Shown here: piece after piece, positions 8,785-53,041 of the stretch
How positions within the stretch are numbered: the first letter of the stretch is position 1
How the letters are laid out: every line of letters begins with the position of its first letter
Source: Candidatus Micrarchaeota archaeon
GTDB lineage: Archaea; Micrarchaeota; Micrarchaeia; Anstonellales; Bilamarchaeaceae
Direction: 5' to 3'
Assembly: GCA_023129075.1 (NCBI GenBank)
Contig: JAGMCT010000023.1
Coordinates: 811 to 64,810 of the forward strand
DNA: 64,000 nucleotides
Notes under the pieces: generated by a model
Databases searched by the model: none
What the model saw: the letters and a program-made list of their open reading frames with translations, nothing else
What the model was told of the DNA's origin: nothing
Position numbers and translations under genes: made by a program

Positions 8785-8849
8785 TTATAATAAGGAGTAA
8801 GAATGTTTTTAAATATATGCTTATTTACATAGAAAAACATAAAAAACAC

Positions 8850-9623
8850 CTATACCGTCTGTTCACTGCTGGTATTGAATATATCCGTCTCAAAACCCCC
8901 TTTCTTTTCCAAGGACTTTATTATGCCATCAACAAGAATCTTTCGCACCCTTTGGTAAGCGTCCCTTCCTACTTCAACGTTTCCAACGGCATATTTGAGA
9001 TTTTTTGCGTTGGAACAAAATAAGGCATCATGTACATTTTCACAGTTATGGCAGAAGTAAGCATTGGTGCTGTCTTTAACAGAATCGCATTCAAATGCAA
9101 CAGTTGCACGTACGCAATTATAGCAGTTGATGCAGAACTTTGAATAGAAAACCCGGAATGAACCGAATATGAATTCTGAGTATTTGGTGTATGAACTATA
9201 TGCTATATTCTTTGAGTTGAATGCATCGTTTGCTCTGTATGTGTTTACAGTATCCTCAAGCCCCATGGTTTCAGTATTATTCTTGTTCTTTCCAACCTGC
9301 ACATCTACATTGAAATAAGCAATTTCAGGGATTTCCTGCAGAAGTTCGTTGAGGGTCATGTTTTCCTTCAGTTCCTTGATCTTTATCTCACTTGCCTTTG
9401 TTTCTCCTTCGTAAAAGGAAACGATTTTCTCTTTTGGTATGAGCTCAAGGAATCTGTACTGCTTTATTAAACGGATATTTTCTCCGGTGAGTTTTGTTTT
9501 TATGTTTTCCCCCTCTCCAATATGTTGTCTCAGCCATCCCTCATATTCATCTAAAGGAGTGAGTTCTTTTCCGAATAGAAGTTTTGTTGTAGTTGAGAGG
9601 GCATTTTCTACTTCTTGATTCAT
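8850..9623 (-). CDS. paralog family protein, single B-type module
   Basis: 257 aa. N-terminal motif ALSTTTKLLFGKELTPLDEYEGWL; C-terminal Cys-rich block CINCYNCVRATVAFECDS...YFCHNCENVHDALFCSNAKNLKYAVGN. Overlaps the upstream A-module gene by 4 bp. Confidence 0.7.
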   Translation of the reverse strand: MNQEVENALSTTTKLLFGKELTPLDEYEGWLRQHIGEGENIKTKLTGENIRLIKQYRFLELIPKEKIVSFYEGETKASEIKIKELKENMTLNELLQEIPEIAYFNVDVQVGKNKNNTETMGLEDTVNTYRANDAFNSKNIAYSSYTKYSEFIFGSFRVFYSKFCINCYNCVRATVAFECDSVKDSTNAYFCHNCENVHDALFCSNAKNLKYAVGNVEVGRDAYQRVRKILVDGIIKSLEKKGGFETDIFNTSSEQTV

Positions 9624-10375
9624 GGTTGAACCCCCTTGGCTATTTTAAATATTGTTGGAAATGACTTTTTCTTCTGCATTATCTCTGCCACTTCTTCCAA
9701 AAGCTTTTCCTTTAAGGAAAGGTATTTCTCTCTTTGGAGCTCTATGTTCCCTATCATATGTTGTTTATTCTTCTGATTAAATGAAAATAGGCACTCCCTG
9801 CAGTTACCCATATGCCAGCTGAAGTACAAGTCCGATGAGGAATTTGAATAACCTGTCTGGAAAAGCCTTGTTGACCTATAATTATGGTACCCCCTTATTA
9901 TTGAATTTGTAAAGGCCGAATAGGTTGAACCAAATATGAATTTTGAACTTAGTAAGATGTTAGAATATGCTGCATACTGAGAATCATAAATAGCATTTGA
10001 TTCAAATACAAAACCAGCATCCATAGACCCATCCGATGCATTAACTTCTATGCACCTCCCAAGATTTTTGTCTCCGCAGTAGAAAAAAGTATCCTTTATG
10101 CAATCAAGCAGGGAATCAATATCTTTTATGGCATTTATATCGAGGGTCGGCTTCTTGAGTCTTTCCAATTCCGCATAAGAAATAAATCTTCCTTCTTTAG
10201 GATATTCAGAATAGTACAAGTAGATGTCTTTTCCCGAGATTGAGGAGGTTCTTTTTGTAATGGGTTCTGCTGTGGACGTTAGATATGTTTTGAACTCCTC
10301 CAGACTTCCGAGCTCTTGTTTGAATAAAGTTCTGCACGTTGAGCGAAATGCAGAATCCAATTTCTGGTTGAACAT
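9620..10375 (-). CDS. paralog family protein, single A-type module
   Basis: 251 aa with the A-module motifs FRSTCRTLFKQELGSLEEFKTYL, SGKDIY, IKDIDSLLD, YAAYSN, SSSDLYFSWHMGNCRECLFSFNQKNKQHMIGNIEL and KLLEEV. Confidence 0.7.
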   Translation of the reverse strand: MFNQKLDSAFRSTCRTLFKQELGSLEEFKTYLTSTAEPITKRTSSISGKDIYLYYSEYPKEGRFISYAELERLKKPTLDINAIKDIDSLLDCIKDTFFYCGDKNLGRCIEVNASDGSMDAGFVFESNAIYDSQYAAYSNILLSSKFIFGSTYSAFTNSIIRGYHNYRSTRLFQTGYSNSSSDLYFSWHMGNCRECLFSFNQKNKQHMIGNIELQREKYLSLKEKLLEEVAEIMQKKKSFPTIFKIAKGVQP

Positions 10376-10499
10376 ATATTAAAAGTGTGCTTAATCAGTA
10401 TTTATATTAAAGTAGTTCAGTAACTGGACTAAAAACTAGGGATTGTTTAGAGTATCATGCTGAACAGAGATATTTAAACCTAGATGGGAAAAAAGAACC

Positions 10500-12080
10500 A
10501 TGCAGAATTCTATTGCATACAATAAGATAAACGAAGCCTGGAAGGATTCCTGCAGGGTTATCTTTGGAAAAGAATTGGGGGATTTGAAGGAATACAAGGA
10601 ATGGCTTTCCATGGACATGGAATCCATGAATACAAAAAAATCAATGGTTTCAGGTAAAGATGTTTGCTGCGCAGTTCCCCATTATTGCGAGGGTGCCAAA
10701 TTTATCTCTCTGGATGAGGTGGACTTTAACAAAAGGTTTGAGCCGTTGAATATAAATGAGATAAAGGACATAGATTCTATTGTTGAAGCATTACAAGAGA
10801 GGTTTTATTATACTGGAAATGTTATACTGGCAAATTCAAGGTTTGTTGAGGAAAGCTCCAACATCTCCAATTCATTCTACATGTTTCATTCAAACTATGC
10901 ATCTGACTCAAAATATGCTGCATATTCATCATATCTTAGGTATTCAAAGTGCATGTTTGGTGTGAATGAAGATGCTCTGTCTTCCTTCGTAATAAGGGGG
11001 TTTGACCTTCACAGGGTGAGTAGAGGTTTTGAGGTGTGGAGAACATTTAGCTCAAATGATTGTTATTATACATATGGAGTGGAGGACTGCAACAATGTCT
11101 TATTTTCATTCAATACAAAGAGCAAGAAATACGTTATTGGAAATCTTGAATTAAGCAGAGAAAAATTCGCATCTCTCAAAAAGAAGTTGTTGGGGGAAAT
11201 AATTGATGGGTTGGAAGGAAAAAAAACGGCTCCTTCCCTAATGGATTTTATTCCAAAAGACCTGGAAAAAACCAGAGCTCCGAAAGTAGAAACCAGAATA
11301 ATGAAAAAAGATGAGAACAAGGAATTGATAGAAGAGGCGTTCAGAAGAACAACAAAGATTGTTTTTGGAAAAGAACTCACAGAGATTGATAGATATGGAG
11401 AATGGCTGGCAGAGAACATGCCCGGAGTTACAACTGTTGAATCTGCTGTAAGCGAAAGCCCTGTTTACCTAGGCTTATATGTTCCTTATACTCACTTACC
11501 CAAAGAGAGGCTGGTCAAAGAAGCAGAAAGCAAAAAACTTGGGGAGATAGTGAAGTTAGAAGAAAGTGAAATAGGTTCAATAGAAGAAATAAAGAAATCC
11601 CTGCAGAAGATTGCGTTCTTTACCCCTGAAACCAGAATGGGAGATAATGCTAACCTGATTTACGCAGCAGTAGTTGCTAGATCAGTAAACTGCTATAAAG
11701 GGGCTCTTTTTGCTTACAATGAAAATTGTGCCTTCTCGTTCTGGTCCAGGAACTCTAAATATATGTTTGGGTCAGCTTTAGCATTTTCCTCTCATTCGTG
11801 CATTAGGTGTTACAATTCTCTGAATCTGTCAAGGTGTTTTGAGACGGATGGTTCAAGCAATTCCTCTGATTTGTATTTTTGTCATAATTGTGAGAACGTG
11901 CAGAATTCTATGTTTACTTTTAATACAAAGAACTTGAAGAATGCTATCGGGAATGCTCCTCTTTCCTTGGAGGATTATAAGAAGGTTAAAGGAAACTTAT
12001 TGGAGCAGATTATAGGTGAAATAGAAGAGAAGGGATCATTAAAATGGAGTATATATAATATTGGGTGTGAAAAAGATTAG
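10500..12080 (+). CDS. paralog family protein, fused A-B two-module form
   Basis: 526 aa. The N half matches the A module (AWKDSCRVIFGKELGDLKEYKEWL...CNNVLFSFNTKSKKYVIGNLEL) and the C half the B module (CIRCYNSLNLSRCFETDGSSNSSDLYFCHNCENVQNSMFTFNTKNLKNAIGNA...KWSIYNIGC). Confidence 0.75.
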   Translation: MQNSIAYNKINEAWKDSCRVIFGKELGDLKEYKEWLSMDMESMNTKKSMVSGKDVCCAVPHYCEGAKFISLDEVDFNKRFEPLNINEIKDIDSIVEALQERFYYTGNVILANSRFVEESSNISNSFYMFHSNYASDSKYAAYSSYLRYSKCMFGVNEDALSSFVIRGFDLHRVSRGFEVWRTFSSNDCYYTYGVEDCNNVLFSFNTKSKKYVIGNLELSREKFASLKKKLLGEIIDGLEGKKTAPSLMDFIPKDLEKTRAPKVETRIMKKDENKELIEEAFRRTTKIVFGKELTEIDRYGEWLAENMPGVTTVESAVSESPVYLGLYVPYTHLPKERLVKEAESKKLGEIVKLEESEIGSIEEIKKSLQKIAFFTPETRMGDNANLIYAAVVARSVNCYKGALFAYNENCAFSFWSRNSKYMFGSALAFSSHSCIRCYNSLNLSRCFETDGSSNSSDLYFCHNCENVQNSMFTFNTKNLKNAIGNAPLSLEDYKKVKGNLLEQIIGEIEEKGSLKWSIYNIGCEKD

Positions 12081-19632: not shown

Positions 19633-21165
19633 ATGGTTATGGAAAGAAAAGAAAGGGTGCTTACCAGACAGGTGCTCAAAAAGCAACCCAATATCTTCAA
19701 GAAAATAATCAAAAACAAAGGCGACCGACAGCATGGATTAGAGCTTAACAATATATTTCTTAATATCCTTGATGAAAACAAGATAACACAAGCAATGTTG
19801 AGAATACAAGCGCTTGCATTAGTACATCACATTGAAGAAAAAAACCTTGGCAGGATTATAACTAATTTTCAAAAAAGCCTTAATGATTCAGTAAAAAAGA
19901 CGTATTCAAAAGACATCCTTCAGCTTTGGAAGAATTATCAAGTCCTTAGAAAAATAGATGAAAATGAAGGGCCATTGGGTATATATAAAGAATTGCTGGA
20001 GAGTGTTGGGCCTATGGTTCTTATGACAAGAATAATGGATTTAAGCTCAAAAAAAATTATAAATCCGTACATTCCAAAACCTAAAAAACAATCTATTTTA
20101 GTTGAGCTTGCTAAGAGGATGCTTTACATTTACTCTCCTGTTGCAGAAATAATGCAGCTCCATATGCGTTCCGGGATAATTAAACATAAAGGAATTGAGG
20201 TATTATACTCGGAACAACTTGATGATGTAAGAGAGATTATTTCTGCAAAGGAATTTGAAATAAAAAAAACAATGAAAACATTCAAACAAAAAATCAATCT
20301 GACAATAGAAAAATATAATGAAGATAATGGAACAAAATTCATAATACCAAAAGACAGGGAATGCAGGATAAAAACGCCTGCAAGCATAGTTCTTAAGATG
20401 ATTGACAAAAAAATAGGGGATGTAGATAGCATCCTTGACCTTATTGCAATAACAATTGTTGAGAACAGCCAGATAGATGAAGAAGAGAAAATAAGGCACA
20501 TTTACAATCTTGAAAAAGAGATTAGTGTTGTTTTGATGGGAAATAAAACATGGCTCCTTGAAGAAGATGACCACATAAAAAATCCAAAGAATACAGGGTA
20601 TCAGGCTTTACACCAAAATTATAAAACATTGAATGGAATTGGTTTTGAGATACAGTACAAAACACTTAAGATGCATGAAAAGTCAGAGAGGGGAGACCCT
20701 TCTCAATTTCATGGAATTCACAAAAGCAACGGAAGAATAACAAAAAGGATTAGTAAAAATCTCAATGAATTCCTTGGCACTGTTGCAATGGCCAAAAATG
20801 AGGAGGAATTACTTGAAAGTTCATTAAAGGCAAGACATGCAAAAAAAACATACTCTTTAACTATCTATGAAAATGGAAAGAAAAGAATTGTCAAATTAAA
20901 ATTTTCATTTGACCCTCTTGTTGCAGATTTAGTAGCAGATTCTGTTGGATTCGAAAGAAAAGTTAATGTATATGGAAAAGAAACAGGTCTGCAATTGCCT
21001 TTTTTGAATAATGTAAAATCAGGTTCAGAAATAGAAATAATGGTAACAGACAGAAAATCTAATTATAGGAAAGAAACAATGAAATTAATATTAGCTAAAA
21101 CAAAAGATGAGAATACAGTTAAAAATATTAAATCTTATCTTAAATCTACTTCCAAAAAAGTATAG
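19633..21165 (+). CDS. RelA/SpoT-homolog (RSH) synthetase-domain protein with C-terminal TGS-like domain
   Basis: The RxKxxxSIxxK motif (RECRIKTPASIVLKM), the D-x-I-A motif (DLIAITIV) and the G-Y-Q-S-L-H...E-I-Q-I-R-T-like block (NTGYQALHQNYKTLNGIGFEIQYKTLKMHEKSERG...FHGIHK) match the (p)ppGpp synthetase domain. C-terminal VNVYGKETGLQLPFLNNVKSGSEIEIM is TGS-like. No intact HD motif is visible (ALALVHHIEE). Confidence 0.55.
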   Translation: MVMERKERVLTRQVLKKQPNIFKKIIKNKGDRQHGLELNNIFLNILDENKITQAMLRIQALALVHHIEEKNLGRIITNFQKSLNDSVKKTYSKDILQLWKNYQVLRKIDENEGPLGIYKELLESVGPMVLMTRIMDLSSKKIINPYIPKPKKQSILVELAKRMLYIYSPVAEIMQLHMRSGIIKHKGIEVLYSEQLDDVREIISAKEFEIKKTMKTFKQKINLTIEKYNEDNGTKFIIPKDRECRIKTPASIVLKMIDKKIGDVDSILDLIAITIVENSQIDEEEKIRHIYNLEKEISVVLMGNKTWLLEEDDHIKNPKNTGYQALHQNYKTLNGIGFEIQYKTLKMHEKSERGDPSQFHGIHKSNGRITKRISKNLNEFLGTVAMAKNEEELLESSLKARHAKKTYSLTIYENGKKRIVKLKFSFDPLVADLVADSVGFERKVNVYGKETGLQLPFLNNVKSGSEIEIMVTDRKSNYRKETMKLILAKTKDENTVKNIKSYLKSTSKKV

Positions 21166-22303
21166 AAGATTCCCTTGCCTCTAATTTTTTGGGCCTTACA
21201 TCTGCGGTTCTTATTTTACATGCATCTATCTTTCCCTTGAAACCTATCCTTTCACCTATTGCAATAAGAATTTCATCTACAGGGATGTGTGTTTCGTGGA
21301 TTACTGCATTCCCTACAATCATTGCTCCTTTTTCTGTGGAAAGGTAAAGGTTGTGAAGAACTTTTTCCATGTCTGCAAAGTAAGTTGAAGCTATTGGAAT
21401 GTGGGAGTATTCTTTTGCTTCTTCAGGGCATTCTGAAAAGGAAGAACCGGTTATGAAAGAACGGATGGATGCAGAGCGGACTAATTTTGTAATGTCCTTT
21501 TCCATCGCAAGCAGGCTTAATTCCAGGCCATAAACTTTGGAATAATCTATGTTGTTGAGGTAGGGAGGGGAAGTGATGAAGGCATCTGCTTTTGTTTTGT
21601 AGGAGCGGGCGTCAGCAACCAGCAATTCGGGAACAGGGCCTTTTATACTATTTTCTTTTAGGTCTTTGAGCATTTGTTTTATCTTTCTTTTGAATGCTAT
21701 TTTAGGGGGGATTGTGCTCTTTTTTGGGTCTGGTCTGAGTACGCCTCCATCCTTCCTGAAAAAACCGCTTTGGGGGAGAATAGAAACTAGCGCAAAGAGG
21801 AAAAAGGCCTTTATCTTTTCTTCCTGAATGTTTTCTATTGAAGTTCTTAGAGAAATCAACTGATTGTAATTTCTTTTTCCAAAAACCTTGGATGGATGAA
21901 ACAATTCAAAATCCCAACTCCAATCTGATTTTTCTTTTGCTGGAGAAATATTTTTCATGTTTTCATATATGGATTTTGTTTCTTCTGCTGAATAATCAGA
22001 GGTTTTTACACTGGAAACAAATATTGAAAGCGGTGAGGAATCTACTGCAATGCAGGAAATTCCTTTACTTTTGCAGACTAGGGGGGTGGTGCCGATTCCG
22101 CAAAAAGGGTCATAAACAATATTTGGCTTGAATAAAGAAAGGTAATGCTCTACTAATTCAGGGGCGTATGCCTCCTTATAATAAAACCAATTGTGTATGG
22201 GGTGTTCCTTGCCGTGTTTAAAAGTAAAATATTCTTTTATCATAAACCTATGGCCTCTTTTGAAAGTTTGTCTGCTATTTGGTTTTTTTCCCTTGGAATC
22301 CAC
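21146..22303 (-). CDS. N6-adenine/N4-cytosine DNA methyltransferase-like (alpha-type motif order), orphan
   Basis: Motif I VYDPFCGIGTT near aa 65 and motif IV AFITSPPYLNN near aa 245. The real start is probably internal (MIKEY, ~22243), because the first 60 nt overlap the RNase H gene. No adjacent restriction-enzyme candidate. Confidence 0.5.
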   Translation of the reverse strand: MDSKGKKPNSRQTFKRGHRFMIKEYFTFKHGKEHPIHNWFYYKEAYAPELVEHYLSLFKPNIVYDPFCGIGTTPLVCKSKGISCIAVDSSPLSIFVSSVKTSDYSAEETKSIYENMKNISPAKEKSDWSWDFELFHPSKVFGKRNYNQLISLRTSIENIQEEKIKAFFLFALVSILPQSGFFRKDGGVLRPDPKKSTIPPKIAFKRKIKQMLKDLKENSIKGPVPELLVADARSYKTKADAFITSPPYLNNIDYSKVYGLELSLLAMEKDITKLVRSASIRSFITGSSFSECPEEAKEYSHIPIASTYFADMEKVLHNLYLSTEKGAMIVGNAVIHETHIPVDEILIAIGERIGFKGKIDACKIRTADVRPKKLEARESSILFWK

Positions 22304-29282: not shown

Positions 29283-29370
29283 AGCCAGGAAAGGGAATCG
29301 AACCCCTCTATGCTGGTTTCTTTCTCACTGGAGCTTGCAGCCAACCACATAGCCAATCTGTCATCCTGGC
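29283..29370 (-). tRNA. tRNA-Cys (anticodon GCA) with putative ~17-nt intron at 37/38
   Basis: Minus-strand GCCAGGATGACAGATTGGCTATGTGGTTGGCTGCAA[GCTCCAGTGAGAAAGAA]ACCAGCATAGAGGGGTTCGATTCCCTTTCCTGGCT. Acceptor GCCAGGA/TCCTGGC; T-arm AGGGG-TTCGATT-CCCTT; anticodon stem GTTGG/CCAGC; loop CTGCAA… The intron boundaries were not verified as BHB. Confidence 0.55.
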
Positions 29371-29512
29371 GAAGTTTCTCTGAGCCGGGAGCTATCGCCA
29401 AAGGCGATTCAATCCTGGCGAAGCCAAGAGCTATAACGCGGAGCGTTATTCAATCCTGGCGAAGTTTCTCTGAGCCGGGAGCTATCACCGAGGGTGATTC
29501 AATCCTGGCATT
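29371..29512 (-). repeat. three tandem tRNA-5'-end-like repeats (41-49 nt) upstream of tRNA-Cys
   Basis: Each unit is GCCAGGATTGAAT-[hairpin]-AGCTCCCGGCTCAGAGAAACTTC. The hairpins (ATCACC…GGTGAT, ATAACGC…GCGTTAT, ATCGCC…GGCGAT) differ by compensatory changes. Confidence 0.7.
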
Positions 29513-29733: not shown

Positions 29734-29817
29734 GCAGGGGTAGCCAAGCGGTCAACGGCGCCAGGTTCAGGGCCTGGTCTCTTAGTGAGTTCGAGGGTTC
29801 GAATCCCTTCCCCTGCA
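29734..29817 (+). tRNA. tRNA-Leu (anticodon CAG), class II
   Basis: GCAGGGGTAGCCAAGCGGTCAACGGCGCCAGGTTCAGGGCCTGGTCTCTTAGTGAGTTCGAGGGTTCGAATCCCTTCCCCTGCA; long D-loop and long variable arm; anticodon loop TTCAGGG. Confidence 0.85.
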
Positions 29818-29986
29818 TTTGTAAACCTATATGACGGGTCAGATTTTTACTTCGTAAATGCTCAAATTTCTGTAGAAATTTGGCACACCGTTTTTCAAGA
29901 GAAAAACAATGAATACTCTCGAAATCTCAGATTACCCTGCGGGTAATTCTCTCGGAAACCTTTGGTTTCCAAGACTTCGGATTTTA

Positions 29987-30399: not shown

Positions 30400-32055
30400 T
30401 TATAAGCGCACCCTATTAATTCCTCTTGAGGATAGCATTTCCGTTCTCAGATGCTCCCCGCGTTTCCACTGCTTTGGCATCTTGTCTCTCACATTCTCCG
30501 GCAGGGCCATTTCTCCGCGTTTTTGTATTTCATAATAGGGAACACCAAATACCTTACTAGCCGGATTGAGATTAAGGGCTTTTACATATATTTCAAATAC
30601 GTTTCGGTGTGTCATTCCTTCTGGAGCATAGCTCGGAGTGTTGAAGTTCGCTATCTCTGGGTGCTTCGTTATATCAACAACCATCCTTCCGCTGTCTAGA
30701 GCACTCTCACCGAATTTTGTCCCTGCAAGAGGTATGAACGAGAATACTGTCATAGCAACCTTCAACATACTGCCTGTGAATACATCCAGAAACGTTTCCA
30801 CATTCTTCATGAATGCTGTTCTCAGTGCTTTATTTGTATGTCCTGGGACACCGACGATTGCTCCCATAGTTACATACTTCAGTGCAGAAGGTGCCTCTCT
30901 TGCTATTTTCTCCATTAATTGCAATTGCGACTCCATGTCTTCAAGTTTTTCGTAAACCTTGCTCTTTGTAAGGTCTTCAAGAGGAGCGTAGAGGCTGACG
31001 CAGTTACTGAGTATTGGGTCCCTGAGCTCATCCCAATACCTATTGAGAAGACTAAGCTGTAATCCATTTCCATATTCTATACTAAATCCGTAGCTGTTGA
31101 TAAGGCCCATAATGGCTTTGACTTTTTTCAGACCAAGCGCAAGAAGGTTGTCATCTGCAATCATGAGGTGCGTTACTCCCATGCTCTTATACATGTCAAG
31201 CTCCTCTCTAATAGTCCCCAGGTCTTTATGAATCAGATATCTTTCCCTTACTCCAGTTGTGCAGTAGCCGCAACTATGCGGGCAACCGGTGCTTATTGTC
31301 ATATGAGCAAATCGATCAAAATACGGGAAGGGCTGGCCTTCCCCAGAACCGTTGAAGTAGCTAAGAACTTCTGGCCTTGGATAAAATGGCAGAGGTATTT
31401 TTATCTCATGTTTTTTATTTGCATAAGCAAGTAAAGGCTCGGGGGGCTTTGTAGTCATTTTTCCTGAGGCATCATGAATCTTTACACCGAACGGCTCGCC
31501 CTCCCCCTTAATTTTCCAAGTGAGATATGCAGGCAAGGAGGCGAATACGTGGCCGTTAAATATCACTGTATTTCTGTTTCCAGCTGCCTTGGCATAAATA
31601 CTCTCAACCTTTTCTGTAAAAACATCCCTTCCTCCAATCCAGATTTCTTTTTCCGGGAAAAGTTTTCTTACCTTCCTTATGTTTCTTGTAACAACTCCTC
31701 TTGACATGGTGAAGTTGTTCGTGAACCCTATAAAATCAGCATCTTCCAAGATGCCTTTTATTGACTCAGTGGATACAGCATTATATGTCTTCATAATTGG
31801 TTTGTCTACATATGGCAGCTTCAATTTCCCGTACTGAACGGTTTCAACCTTGCCATTGTGCGGATCCCTAAGATCCAATTGCACAACTTCTGTTTGGATA
31901 TTCCGACGTTCTGAAAAATCGCGCAGTATCCCTTCCAACTGCGGAAGCGTTGGCTCTGGGCAGTCGCCCCTATCCGAAGAATAGAGCTCGCCATCTGCTG
32001 TTTCCAAAAGCGGTTGTGGGGTTCTTATCAGGACAATCTTTATTTTTTCAGTCAT
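30400..32055 (-). CDS. B12-binding-domain / radical SAM domain protein
   Basis: CxxxCxxC motif TGCPHSCGYCT at ~aa 250 after an N-terminal Rossmann-like domain typical of class B rSAM enzymes. GC content is visibly higher than neighbours. Confidence 0.6.
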   Translation of the reverse strand: MTEKIKIVLIRTPQPLLETADGELYSSDRGDCPEPTLPQLEGILRDFSERRNIQTEVVQLDLRDPHNGKVETVQYGKLKLPYVDKPIMKTYNAVSTESIKGILEDADFIGFTNNFTMSRGVVTRNIRKVRKLFPEKEIWIGGRDVFTEKVESIYAKAAGNRNTVIFNGHVFASLPAYLTWKIKGEGEPFGVKIHDASGKMTTKPPEPLLAYANKKHEIKIPLPFYPRPEVLSYFNGSGEGQPFPYFDRFAHMTISTGCPHSCGYCTTGVRERYLIHKDLGTIREELDMYKSMGVTHLMIADDNLLALGLKKVKAIMGLINSYGFSIEYGNGLQLSLLNRYWDELRDPILSNCVSLYAPLEDLTKSKVYEKLEDMESQLQLMEKIAREAPSALKYVTMGAIVGVPGHTNKALRTAFMKNVETFLDVFTGSMLKVAMTVFSFIPLAGTKFGESALDSGRMVVDITKHPEIANFNTPSYAPEGMTHRNVFEIYVKALNLNPASKVFGVPYYEIQKRGEMALPENVRDKMPKQWKRGEHLRTEMLSSRGINRVRL

Positions 32056-32174
32056 GTTTTTTCACCTTCCGTGTTTCTATGTGTTATTTAGTGTTCTTTC
32101 TTATATTTTATACTTACTACAGAATTTTCCTAAAAAAACAAATATTTATAAATTAAATTTGTTATAATTGAAAA

Positions 32175-33128
32175 ATGGAAGAAATAGATACCAAGGACAG
32201 AATGATACTCCATGCATTGGATTTTCATGCAAGGGAGCCGGTCACAAGGCTTGCAAAAAGACTAAGAATGAGCAAAGACGTGCTGAACTATAGGATTAAA
32301 CGCCTTGAAGAGAAGGGAATAATAGAAGGTTACCATGTAGTTCCGGATCCGACCAAGATGGGAAATGTAACCTACAAACTGCTTGTGAAGTATCAGAGCA
32401 TGACTAAAGAAGTAGAGGAGGAGATGCTGGAATATCTTATAAAATCTAAGGAAACCGGCTGGGTGGCAAAAACTGAGGGAGCATATGACCTTCTTATAAT
32501 TTTTTGGCTGCCAAACGAGGTGGTTTTCGATGAATTTTTGACAAAGTTTCTGGAGAGATACGGAAGGTATTTTTATCTCCGTGACATGATAGTAATCACA
32601 GCGATTCATACATTTAGAAGGGATTATCTCTCGCCAAAAACACCTGAGAAACGTGAGGAGGTGTTCTATAGGGGAAGCGCAAAGAATATCTGCGATGAGA
32701 TTGATTTCAGGATACTTGACATCCTTCAGAGGAAGAATGCAAGAGCAAGCAATATAAAGATTGGAAAGGCGGTTGGATTAACTCCGGAAGCAGTCAGGTA
32801 CAGGATAAAGGAATTAAGGAAAAGGGGGGTAATCTGCACGTTCAGGCCAAAAATCGCACTTGAGAAAATAGGCTATTATTACTATAATGTTATGTTCAGC
32901 CTGAAGGATATGGGGGTACTCAAGAAGATATATTCATATGCACTCGGTAACCAAAATATAACCTTTTATGTAAGATACCTGGGCAAATATGATTTGGGCC
33001 TGGACATAGAAACCGAAAGCCCGGAAAGGCTCAGGGAAATACTTGAGGAGGTTCGTGCTCTTTTTGGGAAGGCAATTGTTAATTATGATGTGGTCCGCAT
33101 CTACGAAGAACTGAAAGTTACTTATTGA
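32175..33128 (+). CDS. Lrp/AsnC-family transcriptional regulator, tandem-duplicated (two HTH_AsnC + RAM-like units)
   Basis: Two copies of the AsnC HTH (DTKDRMILHALDFHAREPVTRLAKRLRMSKDVLNYRIKRLEEKGII and DEIDFRILDILQRKNARASNIKIGKAVGLTPEAVRYRIKELRKRGVI). Confidence 0.65.
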   Translation: MEEIDTKDRMILHALDFHAREPVTRLAKRLRMSKDVLNYRIKRLEEKGIIEGYHVVPDPTKMGNVTYKLLVKYQSMTKEVEEEMLEYLIKSKETGWVAKTEGAYDLLIIFWLPNEVVFDEFLTKFLERYGRYFYLRDMIVITAIHTFRRDYLSPKTPEKREEVFYRGSAKNICDEIDFRILDILQRKNARASNIKIGKAVGLTPEAVRYRIKELRKRGVICTFRPKIALEKIGYYYYNVMFSLKDMGVLKKIYSYALGNQNITFYVRYLGKYDLGLDIETESPERLREILEEVRALFGKAIVNYDVVRIYEELKVTY

Positions 33129-33199: not shown

Positions 33200-33616
33200 T
33201 TGATGAGAAGGAAAACGGCAACCGGAACCCCGATGGTTAAGGCGCTTGCCTGCGGAATGCTTGAAGATAATGACAGGGTGCTTTTCCTCAAGAAGATTGA
33301 GCATGGGATTGAACGGCTGGAATTGCCCTGCGTGCTTGTACCTTCAGGAAAGGACCCGGTTTCATTGCTTGTTTCGGCATTTAAGGAGCAGACTGGCATA
33401 GACGCCGAACTTTGCGATTTGCTTTTTGAGAGGAGGCACAATGCAGGCACGCGAAGGAGGAAGAATTGGGTGCCCTGCCTTGTTTTCGGTTTCAGGGCAA
33501 AGAAAATGAGTGCAAAACCTTCTTCCGGGTTTTCCGGCTTCAAATGGATTTCCCTTGAGAACGCCAGGAAACAGAAACTTGGGAGAAATACCAAATGGCT
33601 TTATGTAAGAGGTTAG
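33200..33616 (+). CDS. hypothetical protein, possibly a degenerate NUDIX-fold protein
   Basis: SGKDPVSLLVSAFKEQTGIDAE only partly matches the Nudix box (the GX5E part is missing); the opposite-strand ORF is low-complexity. Confidence 0.3.
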   Translation: MMRRKTATGTPMVKALACGMLEDNDRVLFLKKIEHGIERLELPCVLVPSGKDPVSLLVSAFKEQTGIDAELCDLLFERRHNAGTRRRKNWVPCLVFGFRAKKMSAKPSSGFSGFKWISLENARKQKLGRNTKWLYVRG

Positions 33617-33633
33617 CAATTTAATATTGGGAT

Positions 33634-33649
33634 TGTAACTATAGTTACA
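33634..33649. repeat. 16-bp perfect palindrome TGTAACTATAGTTACA (copy A1)
   Basis: Perfect inverted repeat; extended direct-repeat partner at 37390 shares tgtaactatagttacaaatc(a/c)(t/c)aaagaaatcattt. Confidence 0.8.
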
Positions 33650-33748
33650 AATCATAAAGAAATCATTTCCACTTGGATAAAACTAATGTGGAGTTAACTG
33701 AAAGTTAACAAACGTAACCTTTAAAAAGTTAACAGATGTAAACCAATT

Positions 33749-34384
33749 ATGAAGATTTCGAAGGAACCCATAGCCAAACAGGTATTTGGATCCCCACTCA
33801 AAAGAAAACTACTGGAATTTTTATTTTCCAATCAAATGCCGGTGAGTGAACGCGAACTCGCTAGGATAATAGGGGTAAGCCACGTCGCGGTAAACAAGGC
33901 GATGAAACAGCTTCTTGATTTGAACATAGTCAAAGCGAATACGGTCGGAACTGCAATGGTATGGGAACTCAATGAAGATTCTTTCGCTTATCCATATGTT
34001 AAGGCATTCATTGAAGCAGGGAAGATAAGTCCTCTTGAATACGTGAAACGAGTACTACAGGAGGATATAAATACAATAAACAAAGCAACTGTTGTTTATA
34101 AACTTGAAAAAAAGGCGAAGAAACCCATCATAAGGGATGCATATTTGTTTGGTTCTGTTGCAGAACAAACCGGAACACCGGAAAGCGATATAGATGTTCT
34201 CATAGTACTTGATTTTGATTATGAAAATAAGCTATTAAAGAAATTACTAAACGAAACTATTGGAATGAAGATATTGGAAAAAACAGGCAATATGGTTTCA
34301 TTTCATATCTACAGTGCCAAATCTATTAAAAAAAATGATCCGCAATGGTTAGTAGGTGCTATAACCAATGGCATAAAGGTGTAA
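33749..34384 (+). CDS. HTH-fused minimal nucleotidyltransferase (MNT, antitoxin-like)
   Basis: N-terminal wHTH (ERELARIIGVSHVAVNKAMKQLLDLNIV) plus NTase core LFGSVAEQTGTPESDIDVLIV (GS…DxD). Confidence 0.6.
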   Translation: MKISKEPIAKQVFGSPLKRKLLEFLFSNQMPVSERELARIIGVSHVAVNKAMKQLLDLNIVKANTVGTAMVWELNEDSFAYPYVKAFIEAGKISPLEYVKRVLQEDINTINKATVVYKLEKKAKKPIIRDAYLFGSVAEQTGTPESDIDVLIVLDFDYENKLLKKLLNETIGMKILEKTGNMVSFHIYSAKSIKKNDPQWLVGAITNGIKV

Positions 34385-34386
34385 AC

Positions 34387-34809
34387 ATGACGAGAACCAA
34401 AAACGTATCCAGGGAAAAATATGTTGGATTTATGGAAAAAGCAGAAGCGTATTATGACTCAATGCTTGATGAGTTTGAAGAAGCGGCACAAAATCCCGCA
34501 AGATATAATAGTTGCATAACCATGGCAGTACACTGTGCAATCTCTTGGGTTGATGCTCTTACCGTATCTAAACTTGGAAAAAAATCCTCGGATTCTCATC
34601 ACGCCGCTGCCAGCATCCTATTAAAGGACATAAAGGCTTCGGACGAAGAGAAAAAGTCCAGGGTTCGCAGACATTTCTACAATTTGATGGAGATGAAAAC
34701 ACCCTGCGAGTATGAAGATAAACTACCCAGCAAGGCAAACGCTAAGCAAGCAGTGCGCTTGTGTGAAAAAATAAGGGATTTTGTTAAAAAAGAACTGGAA
34801 GGCATGTAA
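34387..34809 (+). CDS. putative HEPN-domain protein (toxin-like partner of the MNT)
   Basis: ~140-aa all-alpha protein immediately downstream of the MNT (start MTRTK two nt after its stop); R-x-R-R-H block (SRVRRHFYN) at the C-terminal helix. Confidence 0.4.
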   Translation: MTRTKNVSREKYVGFMEKAEAYYDSMLDEFEEAAQNPARYNSCITMAVHCAISWVDALTVSKLGKKSSDSHHAAASILLKDIKASDEEKKSRVRRHFYNLMEMKTPCEYEDKLPSKANAKQAVRLCEKIRDFVKKELEGM

Positions 34810-34863
34810 ACCTGCTCTTAATCAAACCTTTCCATTACTGGATTTTTTCCATCATCTGACAAA

Positions 34864-34879
34864 TGTAACTATAGTTACA
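34864..34879. repeat. palindrome TGTAACTATAGTTACA (copy B1)
   Basis: Extended ~50-nt direct repeat with the copy at 36043 (aactatagttacaaaccaagga[a/g]acaagaataacaaaccgc). Confidence 0.8.
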
Positions 34880-34931
34880 AACCAAGGAAACAAGAATAAC
34901 AAACCGCCCATCATTACAGATGCTTACGGAC

Positions 34932-35948
34932 CTAATCTTCTTTTCCACAATATTTTTCTACTTCTTTTGTTCTTTTCATTTTATCTTTTTCACCTAAAAA
35001 TGATGCTTCAAATGAATTTTTCCCAAGGGTGCCTATTTCTTCCTTTGTTAAACTCAGTGCTTTTTGTATTGCAAGATAGTTTTCGTTTACATAACCTCCA
35101 AAATATGCCGGGTCATCTGAATTTACTGTTACTAAAAGACCCTTTGCCATCATTTTTTTAATGGGATGTAAGTTGATTTTTTTGACGACTTTTAATTTTA
35201 CATTAGATAGAGGACATATTGTTAATGGGATTCTTCTTTGCACTAATTCTTTTATTAATTTTTTATCTTCCATGCAACGATTTCCATGATCAATCCTTGA
35301 AACCTTCAGAAGCTCTAATGCTTCCCATATGTACTGAGGGGGACCTTCTTCCCCAGCATGTGCAGTTGTATAAAACCCCTCTTTAATTGCTTTTTCAAAA
35401 ACCCTCTTGAATTTTGAAGGGGGGTTTCCCATCTCTGATGAATCCAATCCAACGGCAGTTATCCATTTTTTATAAGGAAGTGCCTCTTCAAGTGTTTTAA
35501 ATGCATCCTCTTCACTTAAGTGTCTTAAGAAACACATGATGATCTTACTTGTAATTCCCATGTCTCTTTTTGCAGTTACAAGTGCTTTTTTTATACCGTT
35601 AATTACAATTTCGAATTCGATTCCTCTTAAAGTGTGTGTTTGCGGATCAAAAAAAATTTCAGTATGTTTTATGTTCTGTTTCTTTGCTTTCTTGAGATAA
35701 TCAAGCGTCAATTCATAAAAATCTTTTTCTTCCTTCAATACCTTTGCACCCTGATAATAGATATCTAAAAATTCCTGTAAATTGTTGAAATTATATGCTT
35801 GCTTTAAACTTTTTACGCATTTGTACGGTATTTCTACATCATTTCTTTTTGCCATTTTAAACATGAGTTCTGGTTCCAAAGTACCTTCTATATGCAAATG
35901 GAGCTCAGCCTTCGGCATTTTTTTTATAAAATCCTTAATCTTTCCCAT
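34932..35948 (-). CDS. add: adenosine deaminase family protein
   Basis: [17 protein letters not shown] and SDDPAYFG motifs of the ADA/AMP-deaminase metal-dependent hydrolase family. Confidence 0.75.
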
Positions 35949-36042
35949 ATAAAGTTTATACTGCAGATATTTTTATTTCTTTCTAATCGCAGGATTTATG
36001 CTTCGGATATAAAATATGTAGGACCAAATATCCTCGGACAAA

Positions 36043-36058
36043 TGCAACTATAGTTACA
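36043..36058. repeat. palindrome-derived repeat TGCAACTATAGTTACA (copy B2)
   Basis: One mismatch to the perfect palindrome; extended identity with copy B1; sits ~90 bp upstream of the add start. Confidence 0.75.
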
Positions 36059-36086
36059 AACCAAGGAGACAAGAATAACAAACCGC

Positions 36087-37358
36087 TTATCTTTTTCCTG
36101 GGAGAACATTGTCAAGCAGAATGGCTATCGAAGCACCGGTTGCTATGCCTGACTGGAGAAGAATAGAAACATACTCTGGAAGCCCTGCCAGCACATCCGC
36201 TGGTACAAAACCGCAGCCAACCCCTGCTATAAGCGCCACACCAATAACAAACATATTCCTTGTGGTTATCTCAACCCCTTCTTTTATTATCCTAAATCCT
36301 GTGAGCGCTATCATCCCGTAGAGGACAAGTGTTGCACCACCGATTACAGAGAGGGGGATTGTTGAGAGCAACGAAGAAACTGCTGGCAGCAGGGAGAGCA
36401 GAATAAGGATGGCGCCTCCTATTGCAACGATATACCTGCTTGCAACGCCCGTTATTGCAACAACCCCTATGTTTTCAGAGTATGATGTTGTTCCAACCCC
36501 TCCAATCAACCCTGAGAAAAGAGAGCCAAAACCCTCTGTTGCAATACCTCTGTTTATCCTTTCCTTGGTAACCTTCACGCCTGAAACAGAGGAAACAGCA
36601 TAATAATCACCAACACTTTCCACCATTGAAACAATAAAAGCAATTATGAATGCTATGATGATCGGAAGCTCAAAAACAGGGGCACCCCAGGGAAAGAAAG
36701 ATGGAAATGAGAAGAGGGGAACACTGAGTACTGGTGAGATATCAACAAAACCAAACGGGATTGAAATCATATACCCTATTGCAATGCCCAGGAAGATTGG
36801 AACGAGTTTTGGGAACCCTCTTGAAAGTGCAAAGAACATCACGAAGGAAGCGGTTACGATGGCGACAATTATTCCTCCTATTCCAGAGGACAGCGAAGAA
36901 TTGACAGCAATCCCTGCCAGAGAAAGACCAATCAGGGCAATCGTTGTGCCTGTGACTGCAGGAGTGAAGAATTTTCTGAGAAATCCGACGATACCTGAGA
37001 GGCCGGCAATGAATTCAAAGAATCCGCCTACAATCAACGCCCCTTGTACAGCTACCATTCCTGCAGATGGAATTGCTGCAAGCATTGGAGGAAGGAATAC
37101 AAAACTGGAGCCCTGGACTATTGGGAGTTTTGAACCGAAAAGGGATTGGATAAGGGTTGCAACACCCATTGCCAAAAGAACTGCCTGGATGAAGATTATC
37201 TGCTCGGCTGGGGAGAAACCAGCAGCCTGTGAAATTATCAATGGAACAACAACGGTTGCACCGAACATACTGAGTACATGCTGTAGGGCAAGAGGAATCG
37301 AGATATGAAGAGGGGGAAACTCATTCAGCTTAATCCTTGGTGTCTTCATCCCTTCCAC
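36087..37358 (-). CDS. NCS2/NAT-family nucleobase (xanthine/uracil) permease
   Basis: 423 aa polytopic membrane protein with the NAT signature region QHVLSMFGATVVVPLI. Confidence 0.75.
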   Translation of the reverse strand: MEGMKTPRIKLNEFPPLHISIPLALQHVLSMFGATVVVPLIISQAAGFSPAEQIIFIQAVLLAMGVATLIQSLFGSKLPIVQGSSFVFLPPMLAAIPSAGMVAVQGALIVGGFFEFIAGLSGIVGFLRKFFTPAVTGTTIALIGLSLAGIAVNSSLSSGIGGIIVAIVTASFVMFFALSRGFPKLVPIFLGIAIGYMISIPFGFVDISPVLSVPLFSFPSFFPWGAPVFELPIIIAFIIAFIVSMVESVGDYYAVSSVSGVKVTKERINRGIATEGFGSLFSGLIGGVGTTSYSENIGVVAITGVASRYIVAIGGAILILLSLLPAVSSLLSTIPLSVIGGATLVLYGMIALTGFRIIKEGVEITTRNMFVIGVALIAGVGCGFVPADVLAGLPEYVSILLQSGIATGASIAILLDNVLPGKR

Positions 37359-37389
37359 TCTCTTTGTTAATATTTTTAAATTTAGTGGA

Positions 37390-37405
37390 TGTAACTATAG
37401 TTACA
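37390..37405. repeat. palindrome TGTAACTATAGTTACA (copy A2)
   Basis: Lies in the divergent promoter region between the permease (-) and the Cys-rich repeat protein (+). Confidence 0.8.
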
Positions 37406-37443
37406 AATCCCAAAGAAATCATTTAAATAGTTTATGGGGGAGA

Positions 37444-38304
37444 ATGGATAAGAAGGTGGAAATAATGAAAAGATTGTTCATTGGAGTTATAGTTTTTGCG
37501 TTTATTTTTACTGCTGGGTGCATCGGCGGCTGCTCTTCTGATGCAGACTGTAATACCTGGGAAAAGTGCGATGTAGAAAACAACGTGTGCATTCTGAAGG
37601 AAGGTTACTGTTATTCAGATACTGATTGTGAAGGAGAATTCAAAACCTGTGATACCTTAACCACTCATAGATGCGTAGTCAAGGAAGGAAGATGTTTGGG
37701 GGATGCAGACTGCGAATCCTGGCAAGTCTGCGATTCTGAAAACTATTGCAAAGCCCTTCCAGGCTTCTGTATGGGAGAAGAAGACTGCACTTCAGAAATA
37801 GATTACTGCAGTTCTGATACACACAAGTGCGAACCGCTTGAAGGCTATTGCTATAATGATTATAATTGTAATGCATGGGAAAGATGCGATATCCCAAGAA
37901 ATACCTGTATTGCAATGGAAGGAAGATGCAACATAGATTCTGAATGCAAGGCATGGGAAGAGTGCAGCAACGAGACCCATTTCTGTATTGCAAAGTATGG
38001 ATTCTGCTTAAATGACGGTGATTGTGATTACTGGCAGTATTGTAATGAGCAGACACACAGATGCTCTACTCTGACAGGTTTCTGTGAAAGGGACGTAGAA
38101 TGCAAGGAATGGCAGTACTGTGATACAGAAACACATCTCTGCGATTCAAAAAAAGGATACTGCAGTACAAATGCAGATTGTGAGGATTGGGAATCCTGCT
38201 GGGCTCACGATCACAAATGTGTTGCCAAGTCAGGAAGATGCAACACGAATGCAGACTGCAGTTATAATGAGTACTGTGATTTGAAAACTCATTACTGTGA
38301 ATAG
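37444..38304 (+). CDS. secreted/lipoprotein cysteine-rich tandem-repeat protein
   Basis: Signal peptide MKRLFIGVIVFAFIFTAGCIGGC, then ~10 repeats of ~26 aa with consensus G+C.xDxDCxxWExCDxExxxC…EG and 3 Cys per repeat. Confidence 0.6.
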   Translation: MDKKVEIMKRLFIGVIVFAFIFTAGCIGGCSSDADCNTWEKCDVENNVCILKEGYCYSDTDCEGEFKTCDTLTTHRCVVKEGRCLGDADCESWQVCDSENYCKALPGFCMGEEDCTSEIDYCSSDTHKCEPLEGYCYNDYNCNAWERCDIPRNTCIAMEGRCNIDSECKAWEECSNETHFCIAKYGFCLNDGDCDYWQYCNEQTHRCSTLTGFCERDVECKEWQYCDTETHLCDSKKGYCSTNADCEDWESCWAHDHKCVAKSGRCNTNADCSYNEYCDLKTHYCE

Positions 38305-38307
38305 AGG

Positions 38308-38580
38308 TTATTCCCTTCTATTCCATAATTTTCTTTTTTTATACATCTGCTCTTTAGCTATTACCAGCAATTCATTTCCCGCCCTTAATGCTTCATCCGG
38401 AGAGAGTTTTATTGCAACCTTCCCAGTGGTATTCATTATTCTAAGGGTGATTATTCCATCTCTTGGAAATCCATTTACCTCTGAAGGGGATTCACTCTCT
38501 ATTCTCAGCACTGTTCTGTGCTGCTCCGCTTTATCATCCTTCCACCAATGGATTACCTCTCCCTCTATCATACAAAACAC
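38308..38580 (-). CDS. small hypothetical protein
   Basis: 90-aa ORF with no recognisable motif; tightly placed between neighbouring genes. Confidence 0.3.
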   Translation of the reverse strand: MFCMIEGEVIHWWKDDKAEQHRTVLRIESESPSEVNGFPRDGIITLRIMNTTGKVAIKLSPDEALRAGNELLVIAKEQMYKKRKLWNRRE

Positions 38581-44702: not shown

Positions 44703-45485
44703 CTAGCCCCTGCCTGCCTCTTTCCAAAGCATATCAAAAAATTTCCTGTAGGAATTAGCAGGTATTGAATCCTCAATAAGAAAACCGTAGGGCTTTTCTG
44801 TATAAACTATGATTGCTACTTTGTTTCCACCTATTACTGTTTCCTGCAAGGGTTCAATCTCTTTTTTTGTGTATCTTACTTTGGTTAATGGTTTTTTATC
44901 CAGCTCTTTTCCCCAATACCTAAGAGAAGGTTGAAAAATAATCCTGGCTTTTGTTTTGTTTTTTATTCTTCTATTATGGAGGTGCCTCCAGAAATAATCT
45001 CCTAATCTCTCCTGCTGGGGCTTTGAGCCGCCATATGAATCATATTCTTCCGGAGAGTCCTGGACAAGGTAATTCAGCATCTCTTTGATCCCTCTTATCC
45101 CCCTGTAAATTGTTGCCTCTGGTTTCTTTCCTGCTGTATTCTGTCTTGCAAGAAGTTCGGGCAGTATTTCCTCAAATCTCTTTTTCTTATCTTCAATAAA
45201 ATCACTAATCGACCTAGGATTTATACATTGGTAACTTCTTTTCCTGCCTTCTAAGACATAGGTTACAAGACCTTTTTCACCAAGGGAATGCAGTGCCCTG
45301 TGAACTACTGCATTCTGCAAGTTAGATCTTTTAACAATAGGTCCTGCCGAGGAAGAACCCAGCTCCAGCAATGCTAAATATACCTTAATCTCAACCCCGG
45401 TAAGTCCTATATCTTCCAAAGCTGATGTATCCATAACCTTATTTATATTGTTCTTACATTTAAATGTTTCTATTTTTGTAGTCAC
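44703..45485 (-). CDS. TrmB-family transcriptional regulator
   Basis: N-terminal TrmB HTH GLTGVEIKVYLALLELGSSSAGPIVKRSNLQNAVVHRALHSLGEKGLV plus a C-terminal sensor-like domain. Confidence 0.65.
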   Translation of the reverse strand: MTTKIETFKCKNNINKVMDTSALEDIGLTGVEIKVYLALLELGSSSAGPIVKRSNLQNAVVHRALHSLGEKGLVTYVLEGRKRSYQCINPRSISDFIEDKKKRFEEILPELLARQNTAGKKPEATIYRGIRGIKEMLNYLVQDSPEEYDSYGGSKPQQERLGDYFWRHLHNRRIKNKTKARIIFQPSLRYWGKELDKKPLTKVRYTKKEIEPLQETVIGGNKVAIIVYTEKPYGFLIEDSIPANSYRKFFDMLWKEAGRG

Positions 45486-45545
45486 AATTGTGATTATAAA
45501 TATTAATATACTTGAACGACTCTTAATGTAGCAAGAGGTGGTAAA

Positions 45546-52844: not shown

Positions 52845-53041
<197 letters not shown>

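Follow-up and report, generated by a model that had tools for sequence, protein, structure and literature searches.

A conserved palindrome, a candidate operator of DPANN archaea, is locally duplicated around a toxin-antitoxin pair, a deaminase and a permease in a Micrarchaeota genome

We analyzed a stretch of 64,000 nucleotides from contig JAGMCT010000023.1 of a Candidatus Micrarchaeota archaeon, here referred to as the window, in which the 16-bp palindrome TGTAACTATAGTTACA recurs around a toxin-antitoxin gene pair, an adenosine deaminase gene and a nucleobase permease gene. The interpretation we favour, and hold at about even confidence, is that the palindrome is a conserved operator of a putative dimeric DNA-binding protein of DPANN archaea which has been locally duplicated with short flanks around these genes. 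The predicted binder is probably a helix-turn-helix (HTH) transcription factor. An operator had already been proposed in an initial annotation of the same DNA, and this proposal is supported by the half-site geometry, by the position of the site at orthologous promoters in other DPANN-type archaea and by one copy, here named A2, which lies between two TATA boxes.

In total, four copies were confirmed in the window, beginning at 33634, 34864, 36043 and 37390 as initially annotated. Three of them are exact: A1 (33634-33649), B1 (34864-34879) and A2 (37390-37405). The fourth, B2 (TGCAACTATAGTTACA, 36043-36058), carries one mismatch and starts with TGCAAC. All four are intergenic according to our open reading frames (ORFs) as well as to the public gene calls, they are found in one orientation and they share the asymmetric tail ...ACAAAYC. 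With up to two mismatches allowed, no match was obtained in 100 dinucleotide-preserving shuffles, compared with the four sites of the window. Allowing three mismatches added a single weak site at 50697 in the whole 64 kb. A search for GTAAC-N4-GTTAC with up to one mismatch returned the same four sites, and half-site spacings other than 4 bp were not found in the window. A chance origin of the four copies is ruled out by the shuffles and the relaxed motif scans. The consensus TGTAAC-TATA-GTTACA, often lengthened to TTGTAAC...GTTACAA, consists of two 6-bp inverted half-sites with their centres 10 bp, or one helical turn, apart. This geometry fits a dimeric regulator and is that of dimeric HTH operators.

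The palindromes are embedded in two kinds of repeat unit. The outer units A1 (33634-33668, + strand) and A2 (37390-37424, + strand) comprise the palindrome and a 19-nt shared right flank (AAATCATAAAGAAATCATTT), and they are 94% identical over 35 nt. The inner units B1 (34851-34915, + strand) and B2 (36030-36094, + strand) are 96% identical over 50 nt or 89% over 65 nt, so that the shared flanks described previously for both pairs were reproduced. A1 begins 17 nt past the stop codon of a NUDIX-like ORF, and the right end of B2 overlaps the stop codon of the permease gene (36087-36089). Neither A nor B flanks standing alone without a palindrome were found. The four copies are two duplicated modules and not four independent sites. 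Each of four consecutive gene boundaries has a copy, and none is present at the approximately 50 other boundaries of the window.

The genes between the copies had been identified correctly. Downstream of A1, an operon on the + strand encodes a winged HTH fused to a minimal nucleotidyltransferase, an MntA-like antitoxin here named HTH-MNT (33749-34384, family matches), and its toxin partner, a HEPN-domain protein (34387-34809, family match). The winged-HTH domain of HTH-MNT gave weak matches of the GntR, Crp and ArsR types. B1 and B2 bracket the bacterial-type adenosine/adenine deaminase gene add (34932-35948, - strand; NF006850 above cut-off). It is followed by a pbuX-like gene for a permease of the NCS2 family (36087-37349, - strand) and, beyond A2, by a gene for a Cys-rich repeat lipoprotein (37465-38304, + strand). 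The latter is convergent with a conserved gene of 87 amino acids (38308-38571, - strand). A2 was confirmed to lie between the divergent permease and Cys-rich genes. To the left of A1, the NUDIX-like ORF of 137 amino acids (33203-33616, + strand) had a weak, sub-threshold Pfam match only, and next to it a tandem (two-HTH) Lrp protein is encoded at 32175-33128. The NUDIX-like ORF showed the highest GC content at third codon positions (GC3) of the window genes (0.54, z=+3.1) and may be foreign or not a real gene.

For most first genes of the window, a TATA-like element begins 27-32 nt ahead of the start codon, and the transcripts are thus essentially leaderless. The TATA-like box of the permease gene (ATTTAAAAATAT, 37371-37382, - strand) is found at about -30 from its ATG at 37349, that of the Cys-rich lipoprotein gene (TTTAAATA) at 37422-37429 (+ strand). 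A2 is located between these two divergent core promoters, with gaps of 7 nt on the left, to the permease TATA, and of 16 nt on the right, to the Cys-rich gene TATA. The HTH-MNT/HEPN operon has a TATA-like box at -29 (TTTAAAAA, 33720-33727, + strand). Upstream of add a TATA-like element was read directly from the sequence about 20-30 nt before the ATG (AAATAAAAATAT, 35967-35978, - strand). In agreement with the distances given initially, 99 nt separate the end of A1 from the HTH-MNT ATG, and the start of B2 lies upstream of the add ATG at a distance of 94 nt. The centre of A1 is located ~107 nt upstream of the HTH-MNT start codon and ~80 nt upstream of its TATA box; for B2, the distance from the centre to the add start codon is ~102 nt. 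No TATA-like element was found in the sequence around B1.

Of the four copies, A2 would accordingly appear to be the one most clearly functional: a dimer bound there would adjoin the B recognition element (BRE) and TATA box of the leaderless permease promoter, 16 nt away from the TATA box of the Cys-rich gene. From this position it could control the permease and Cys-rich genes by aiding or hindering the recruitment of TBP and TFB. A1 and B2, roughly 100 nt upstream of HTH-MNT/HEPN and add, may serve as auxiliary or looping sites, and B1 is probably a by-product of duplication. The cluster probably arose by local copying of two operator-bearing modules, A of ~35 nt and B of ~50-65 nt, with the B pair bracketing what appears to be a horizontally acquired deaminase gene of bacterial type.

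Further copies were sought with an exact 20-mer in one genome per species and with an 18-mer in metagenomes. The 20-mer was found in intergenic context in three species genomes, one of them binned as bacterial. These were: STA_38, a Candidatus Iainarchaeum metagenome-assembled genome with four copies on three contigs; one further Micrarchaeote with a single copy; and a contig binned as Ktedonobacteraceae, which carried a second copy with two mismatches. A 20-mer inside a Ruminococcus gene looks like chance. The metagenome scan returned 92 stretches, most of them from unrelated organisms and a subset archaeal. Some bacterial matches are operator sites of the HcpR2 or LysR type and adjoin hcp and a Crp-type gene, or LysR and ABC-transporter genes. 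An ABC-ATPase homologue common to several matches proved to be generic ABC-transporter similarity and provides no link between them. Viral contigs gave no match. A literature search with the sequence yielded malaria primers only, and no paper on intergenic palindromes of Micrarchaeota was found.

Conservation at orthologous sites was observed at three loci. Two Micrarchaeota (loci L114 and L116) have glycosyltransferase (GT2) and ferredoxin proteins of 78% and 70% identity. Within their divergent GT2/ferredoxin gap, no perfectly conserved block is longer than TGTAACCATGGTTACAAA. It is located between two TATA boxes, which is the same layout as at A2, and its half-sites are kept while the centre is altered symmetrically from TATA to CATG. 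In STA_38 (L006) a site follows the purN stop codon by 7 nt and is also perfect in L038, a locus of 84% nucleotide identity, although the immediate flanks have diverged, neighbouring genes have changed and the adjacent 2.86 kb are absent in L038. The third locus is the divergent promoter between a small gene and a helicase gene in L069 and L031, compared also in L080. Here, L069 and L031 share the order purF, pheT, small gene, site and helicase gene with proteins of ~45% identity. The expected conservation was seen at these orthologous sites; no relative with the locus of the window itself was found.

In seven archaeal metagenome loci a small protein of ~78 amino acids is encoded directly beside the palindrome. 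The genes are located at L012:293-532(-), L028:11585-11815(+), L030:2425-2694(+), L031:9642-9884(+), L069:7190-7423(-), L080:1342-1575(-) and L083:1660-1809(+). In four of the seven (L028, L030, L031 and L083), 1-2 nt separate the palindrome from the leaderless ATG, and in L030 and L031 it immediately follows a TATA-like element (~-32). The protein belongs to no Pfam family and its sequence matches to Cas2 were marginal. A structural model (pLDDT 90) matched almost exclusively Cas2 among the top 30 PDB entries, and VapD appeared at lower ranks. These stand-alone Cas2-fold proteins form a narrow family, which has 76 cluster representatives in a set of 1.84 billion proteins. Neither a CRISPR array nor a cas1 gene was in view at the seven loci, and no homologue of the protein is encoded in the window.

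The Cas2-fold protein may be either a toxin-like target under regulation or the protein that binds the site. An extended version of the latter would make the palindrome the recognition site of a lineage-specific protein of a kind not known so far for sequence-specific DNA binding, with the Cas2-fold protein as one candidate. It would repress its own gene and, by binding or cleaving DNA at this site, would also favour the insertion or duplication of short operator-bearing modules without an integrase; the array of the window would be the product of such a minimal cassette system of DPANN archaea. We regard this scenario as quite improbable.

Several observations weigh against the operator interpretation favoured here. 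A1 and B2 are found ~100 nt from the start codons, which is an unusual distance for archaeal regulation. B1 is located between the convergent 3' ends of the HEPN gene (stop 34809) and add (stop 34932), and there is consequently no promoter for it to control. The shared flanks of the window copies show that they spread by copying and not by independent origin, and, as mentioned above, a second genome with this locus was not recovered. A defined core-promoter position was found for A2, L114/L116 and the Cas2-fold loci, and is absent for B1, L006a, L006b, L094 and an intragenic copy in L069. About four of roughly 25 archaeal sites (B1, two in L006, and L094) fall into short convergent gaps. The intragenic copy (L069:7911-7926) is perfect, lies inside a Hef-like helicase ORF and codes for IVTIVT; it is located ~400 nt downstream of the promoter-region copy, a spacing which could permit looping. 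Taken together, these convergent and intragenic sites indicate no clear promoter bias and no obvious depletion from non-promoter DNA. Furthermore, nearly all recovered copies are perfect, which is unusual for a regulon and partly an artefact of the exact-match search. Finally, no cognate DNA-binding protein emerged among HTH-MNT, the tandem Lrp and the TrmB-like regulators, none of which co-occurs with the motif.

Such a distribution could also be explained by the palindrome being the core of an extragenic element similar to repetitive extragenic palindromic (REP) sequences or miniature inverted-repeat transposable elements (MITEs), or a roadblock, insulator or architectural site. In either case it would mark gene boundaries of any kind and would be selfish or bound by a nucleoid-associated protein, with no gene-specific regulon. 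The sites occupy gaps of the divergent, tandem and convergent types without an evident preference, and often they are no more than 20 nt away from a stop codon (A1, twice in L006, L038, L082, L094 and L069-229). In addition, the copies are near-identical and patchily distributed, with the exact intergenic 20-mer in only the three species-representative genomes named above. REP elements, their mosaic clusters (BIMEs) and MITEs are likewise short extragenic palindromes found in all gap types, and the window copies, like them, have family-specific flanks. We consider this explanation unlikely, since the fixed, conserved position relative to the TATA box or start codon at the Cas2-fold gene and the GT2/ferredoxin promoter points to a promoter-specific function. 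Moreover, neither a REP-associated tyrosine transposase (RAYT) nor another transposase was detected, copy number is apparently very low, and the ends of the A and B units show neither terminal inverted repeats other than the palindrome itself nor significant target-site duplications. A 7-bp repeat, CCATCAT, which flanks B1 was rejected as a target-site duplication, as a flanking repeat of 7 bp or longer is seen at 22% of random positions. The copies also lack a T-tract and a stable RNA structure. An RNA element or intrinsic terminator was rejected as well: the hairpin has a stem of 6-7 bp only, fold z-scores were -0.5 to -1.8, an Rfam scan gave no relevant match and a terminator scan no terminator-like site overlapping a copy.

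The deaminase gene bracketed by the B units deserves a separate consideration. Its best homologues, 65-72% identical, are from Patescibacteria and Bacteroidota, and its GC3 is the lowest among 53 window genes. By composition and phylogeny, add is thus judged to be foreign and horizontally acquired. In another Micrarchaeote (L111:9301-13348) the same bacterial-type add is inserted between rpsG (S7) and EF-2, inside the conserved S12-S7-EF2 cluster. That the motif travelled with add was rejected, since the add genes of L111, L112/L113 and L118/L119 have no such site; the motif hence is part of the host locus and was not brought in by the gene. The arrangement of the window is derived, since in relatives a HAD hydrolase gene precedes the Cys-rich gene.

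The initial annotation had alternatively suggested cassette recombination. In our version of this idea, the palindromes would be att-like recombination sites or hotspots, and circular modules would have been inserted successively in a Campbell-style manner, resulting in the minimal cassette array A1-[MNT/HEPN]-B1-[add]-B2-[permease]-A2. This would account for the copies at four consecutive gene boundaries and nowhere else in the window, and for the 19-50 nt of extra shared flank in the direct repeats, as in attL/attR-like duplication. The foreign deaminase gene, which also entered the rpsG/EF-2 gap elsewhere, and a cargo of toxin-antitoxin pairs in the window and in L002 point in the same direction. 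So does a 2.86-kb insertion/deletion that distinguishes L006 from L038, which starts at a distance of ~10 nt from the palindrome and is the only such difference seen beside a site elsewhere. An explanation of this difference as cassette excision was rejected: there is no second copy at the far end, and L038 retains the 3' remnant of the deleted gene, which indicates an ordinary deletion constrained by the 32-nt intergenic gap.

Arrays of integron attC sites or Xer-dependent dif modules resemble the locus in having a palindrome between successive modules, direct repeats and toxin-antitoxin and acquired genes as cargo. They differ from the window, in which the modules have promoters of their own, are not all in one orientation and are bounded by repeats that share both flanks. 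That B1 and B2 share both flanks is also not predicted by simple site-specific integration. The attC site is an imperfect structure of 55-140 nt with R''/L''/L'/R' boxes and extrahelical bases, whereas the element described here is a perfect palindrome of 16 bp with no extended hairpin in its flanks. A scan of 20 window ORFs against Pfam revealed no integrase, transposase or recombinase domain and neither an IntI integrase nor a Xer gene. In view of this, of the add homologues without a site (L111, L112 and L118) and of the perfect conservation at orthologous promoters over deep divergence, which suits cis-regulation better, we consider recombination rather unlikely as the origin of the array.

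To return to the putative operator, its cognate protein was looked for among the regulators encoded nearby. According to a narrower proposal the sites are operators of the adjacent HTH-MNT, by toxin-antitoxin autoregulation, or of the neighbouring tandem Lrp. A1 is indeed located upstream of the HTH-MNT operon and the protein has a winged-HTH domain, archaeal Lrp boxes are palindromes with AT-rich centres, and in L006 and L082 the palindrome is found 2-8 nt from the end of an Lrp-family gene. The latter is a coincidence and not evidence of regulation. These two candidates of the initial annotation were not supported by the comparison, as no HTH-MNT homologue is encoded near any other copy, and three orthologues of the tandem Lrp (50-61% identity) lack the motif within 10 kb on either side. 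The motif was absent from their 3' ends, from their radical S-adenosylmethionine (SAM) gene promoter and from the Lrp promoter of the window itself, and ~100 kb around the orthologues contained no palindrome. Given in addition the spread of the motif across many unrelated loci and lineages, we regard this proposal as highly improbable.

The tandem Lrp gene was always divergently paired with a radical-SAM gene (window 30400-33128; L103/L106/L108 around 8800-10950), which suggests a conserved regulator-target pair across Micrarchaeota. TrmB-like regulators were rejected as well, as they do not co-occur with the motif and their own promoter has a different palindrome (TCACAATTGTGA). At 45470-45500 of the window the palindrome GTCACAATTGTGAT is found in the divergent promoter of a TrmB-like regulator gene and an ABC-transporter binding-protein gene. 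GTCACAATTGTGAT is probably the operator of the TrmB-like regulator itself.

For the purine-salvage regulon initially proposed, the observations are suggestive only. Purine-related genes recur beside the site: the window has add and the NCS2 permease gene, STA_38 has purN and a gene for a DUF84 NTPase, and L069 has the purL-purQ-purF operon, where a one-mismatch site is found ~40 nt upstream of the operon TATA. The STA_38 protein, a fusion of a cytidylyltransferase-like and a putative DUF84 NTPase domain, was named by eye from its translation. By our estimate the purine neighbours exceed expectation if 1-2% of genes are purine-related, with the category having been set post hoc. Most other neighbours are unrelated, however, and several sites are located at 3' ends. 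The non-purine neighbours are toxin-antitoxin pairs, the Cys-rich lipoprotein gene and its 87-aa partner, ftsZ and an inositol-phosphate synthase gene, GT2/ferredoxin, the helicase gene and the Cas2-fold gene. A regulon linked to purines is possible, but it would not be confined to purine genes.

Operators of archaeal repressors of the MDR1, Phr, LrpA and TrmB types lie between the TATA box and the transcription start. The palindrome 1-2 nt before the ATG of the Cas2-fold gene (in the four loci given above) agrees with this arrangement. A2 differs, since it is located upstream of TATA/BRE, and so do the other three window copies, which are promoter-distal or promoterless.

With respect to sequence, the closest parallel is the HcpR2 box of CRP/FNR-family regulators, GTAACnnnnGTTAC, known from Clostridia, Bacteroides and Thermotogales (Rodionov et al. 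2005, PMC1274295). The core of the palindrome equals GTAACnnnnGTTAC, and both have inverted half-sites of 5-6 bp, a 4-bp spacer, a period of one helical turn and a promoter-proximal location. The differences are the archaeal host, the centre kept by the lineage (TATA or CATG) and the extension of the site to TGTAAC...GTTACA(AA). With E. coli CRP and a partial HcpR2-like protein as queries, tblastn found no CRP/FNR-like protein in the window or in the Micrarchaeota loci, and hcp was absent from the window ORFs scanned and from the related loci.

The Ss-LrpB box, TTGCAAAATTTGCAA, is likewise an archaeal palindrome with TTG.A/T.CAA-like arms and an AT-rich centre. It is 15 bp long, whereas the palindrome of the window has 16-18 bp and the half-site TGTAAC. 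A further difference from an Lrp-type system is that the Lrp genes beside the motif have it at their 3' ends and that the tandem-Lrp orthologues have none nearby. In a chromatin immunoprecipitation study, Ss-LrpB bound intragenic and promoter-distal sites without effect on expression (PMC4046817), which sets a precedent for copies outside promoters.

Among the neighbours of the palindrome are genes for the uptake, salvage and synthesis of purines as well as toxin-like and cell-envelope genes. DPANN archaea have tiny genomes with few regulators and depend on hosts for nucleotides. To our knowledge, almost nothing is known about transcriptional regulation in this group. A strongly conserved and recognisable operator would provide a handle for finding the regulator and its regulon in organisms that are not culturable alone. 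The duplication around the deaminase gene would illustrate how an acquired gene ends up bracketed by regulatory modules of the host. If, on the other hand, the site drives recombination, this would be a new and very simple way to assemble gene modules.

Some further features of the window were noted. A tRNA with an intron of ~120 nt is located at 52845-53041 (- strand); it was missed by ARAGORN and by the Rfam gathering scan and was detected with 41.7 bits in a sensitive Rfam scan. The 3' part of this tRNA nearly repeats, in inverted orientation, that of tRNA-Leu(CAG) at 29781-29818. The first 8 nt of tRNA-Leu(CAA) (GCCAGGAT) recur four times in the sequence immediately upstream of it on the minus strand (29363-29509), heading units of 41-49 nt with a small hairpin in each. 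Approximately eight paralogous genes encoding proteins of 250-536 amino acids are found on both strands between 8850 and 16870. The one member scanned against Pfam (10500-12080) had no domain, and a homologue of the cluster adjoins a tandem-Lrp-like gene in STA_38 (L006:6010-7593). Finally, a protein of 510 amino acids encoded at 19633-21165 (+ strand) carries a RelA/SpoT nucleotidyltransferase domain (Pfam E=3e-14), and a DNA methylase-like gene is adjacent to it at 21146-22303.

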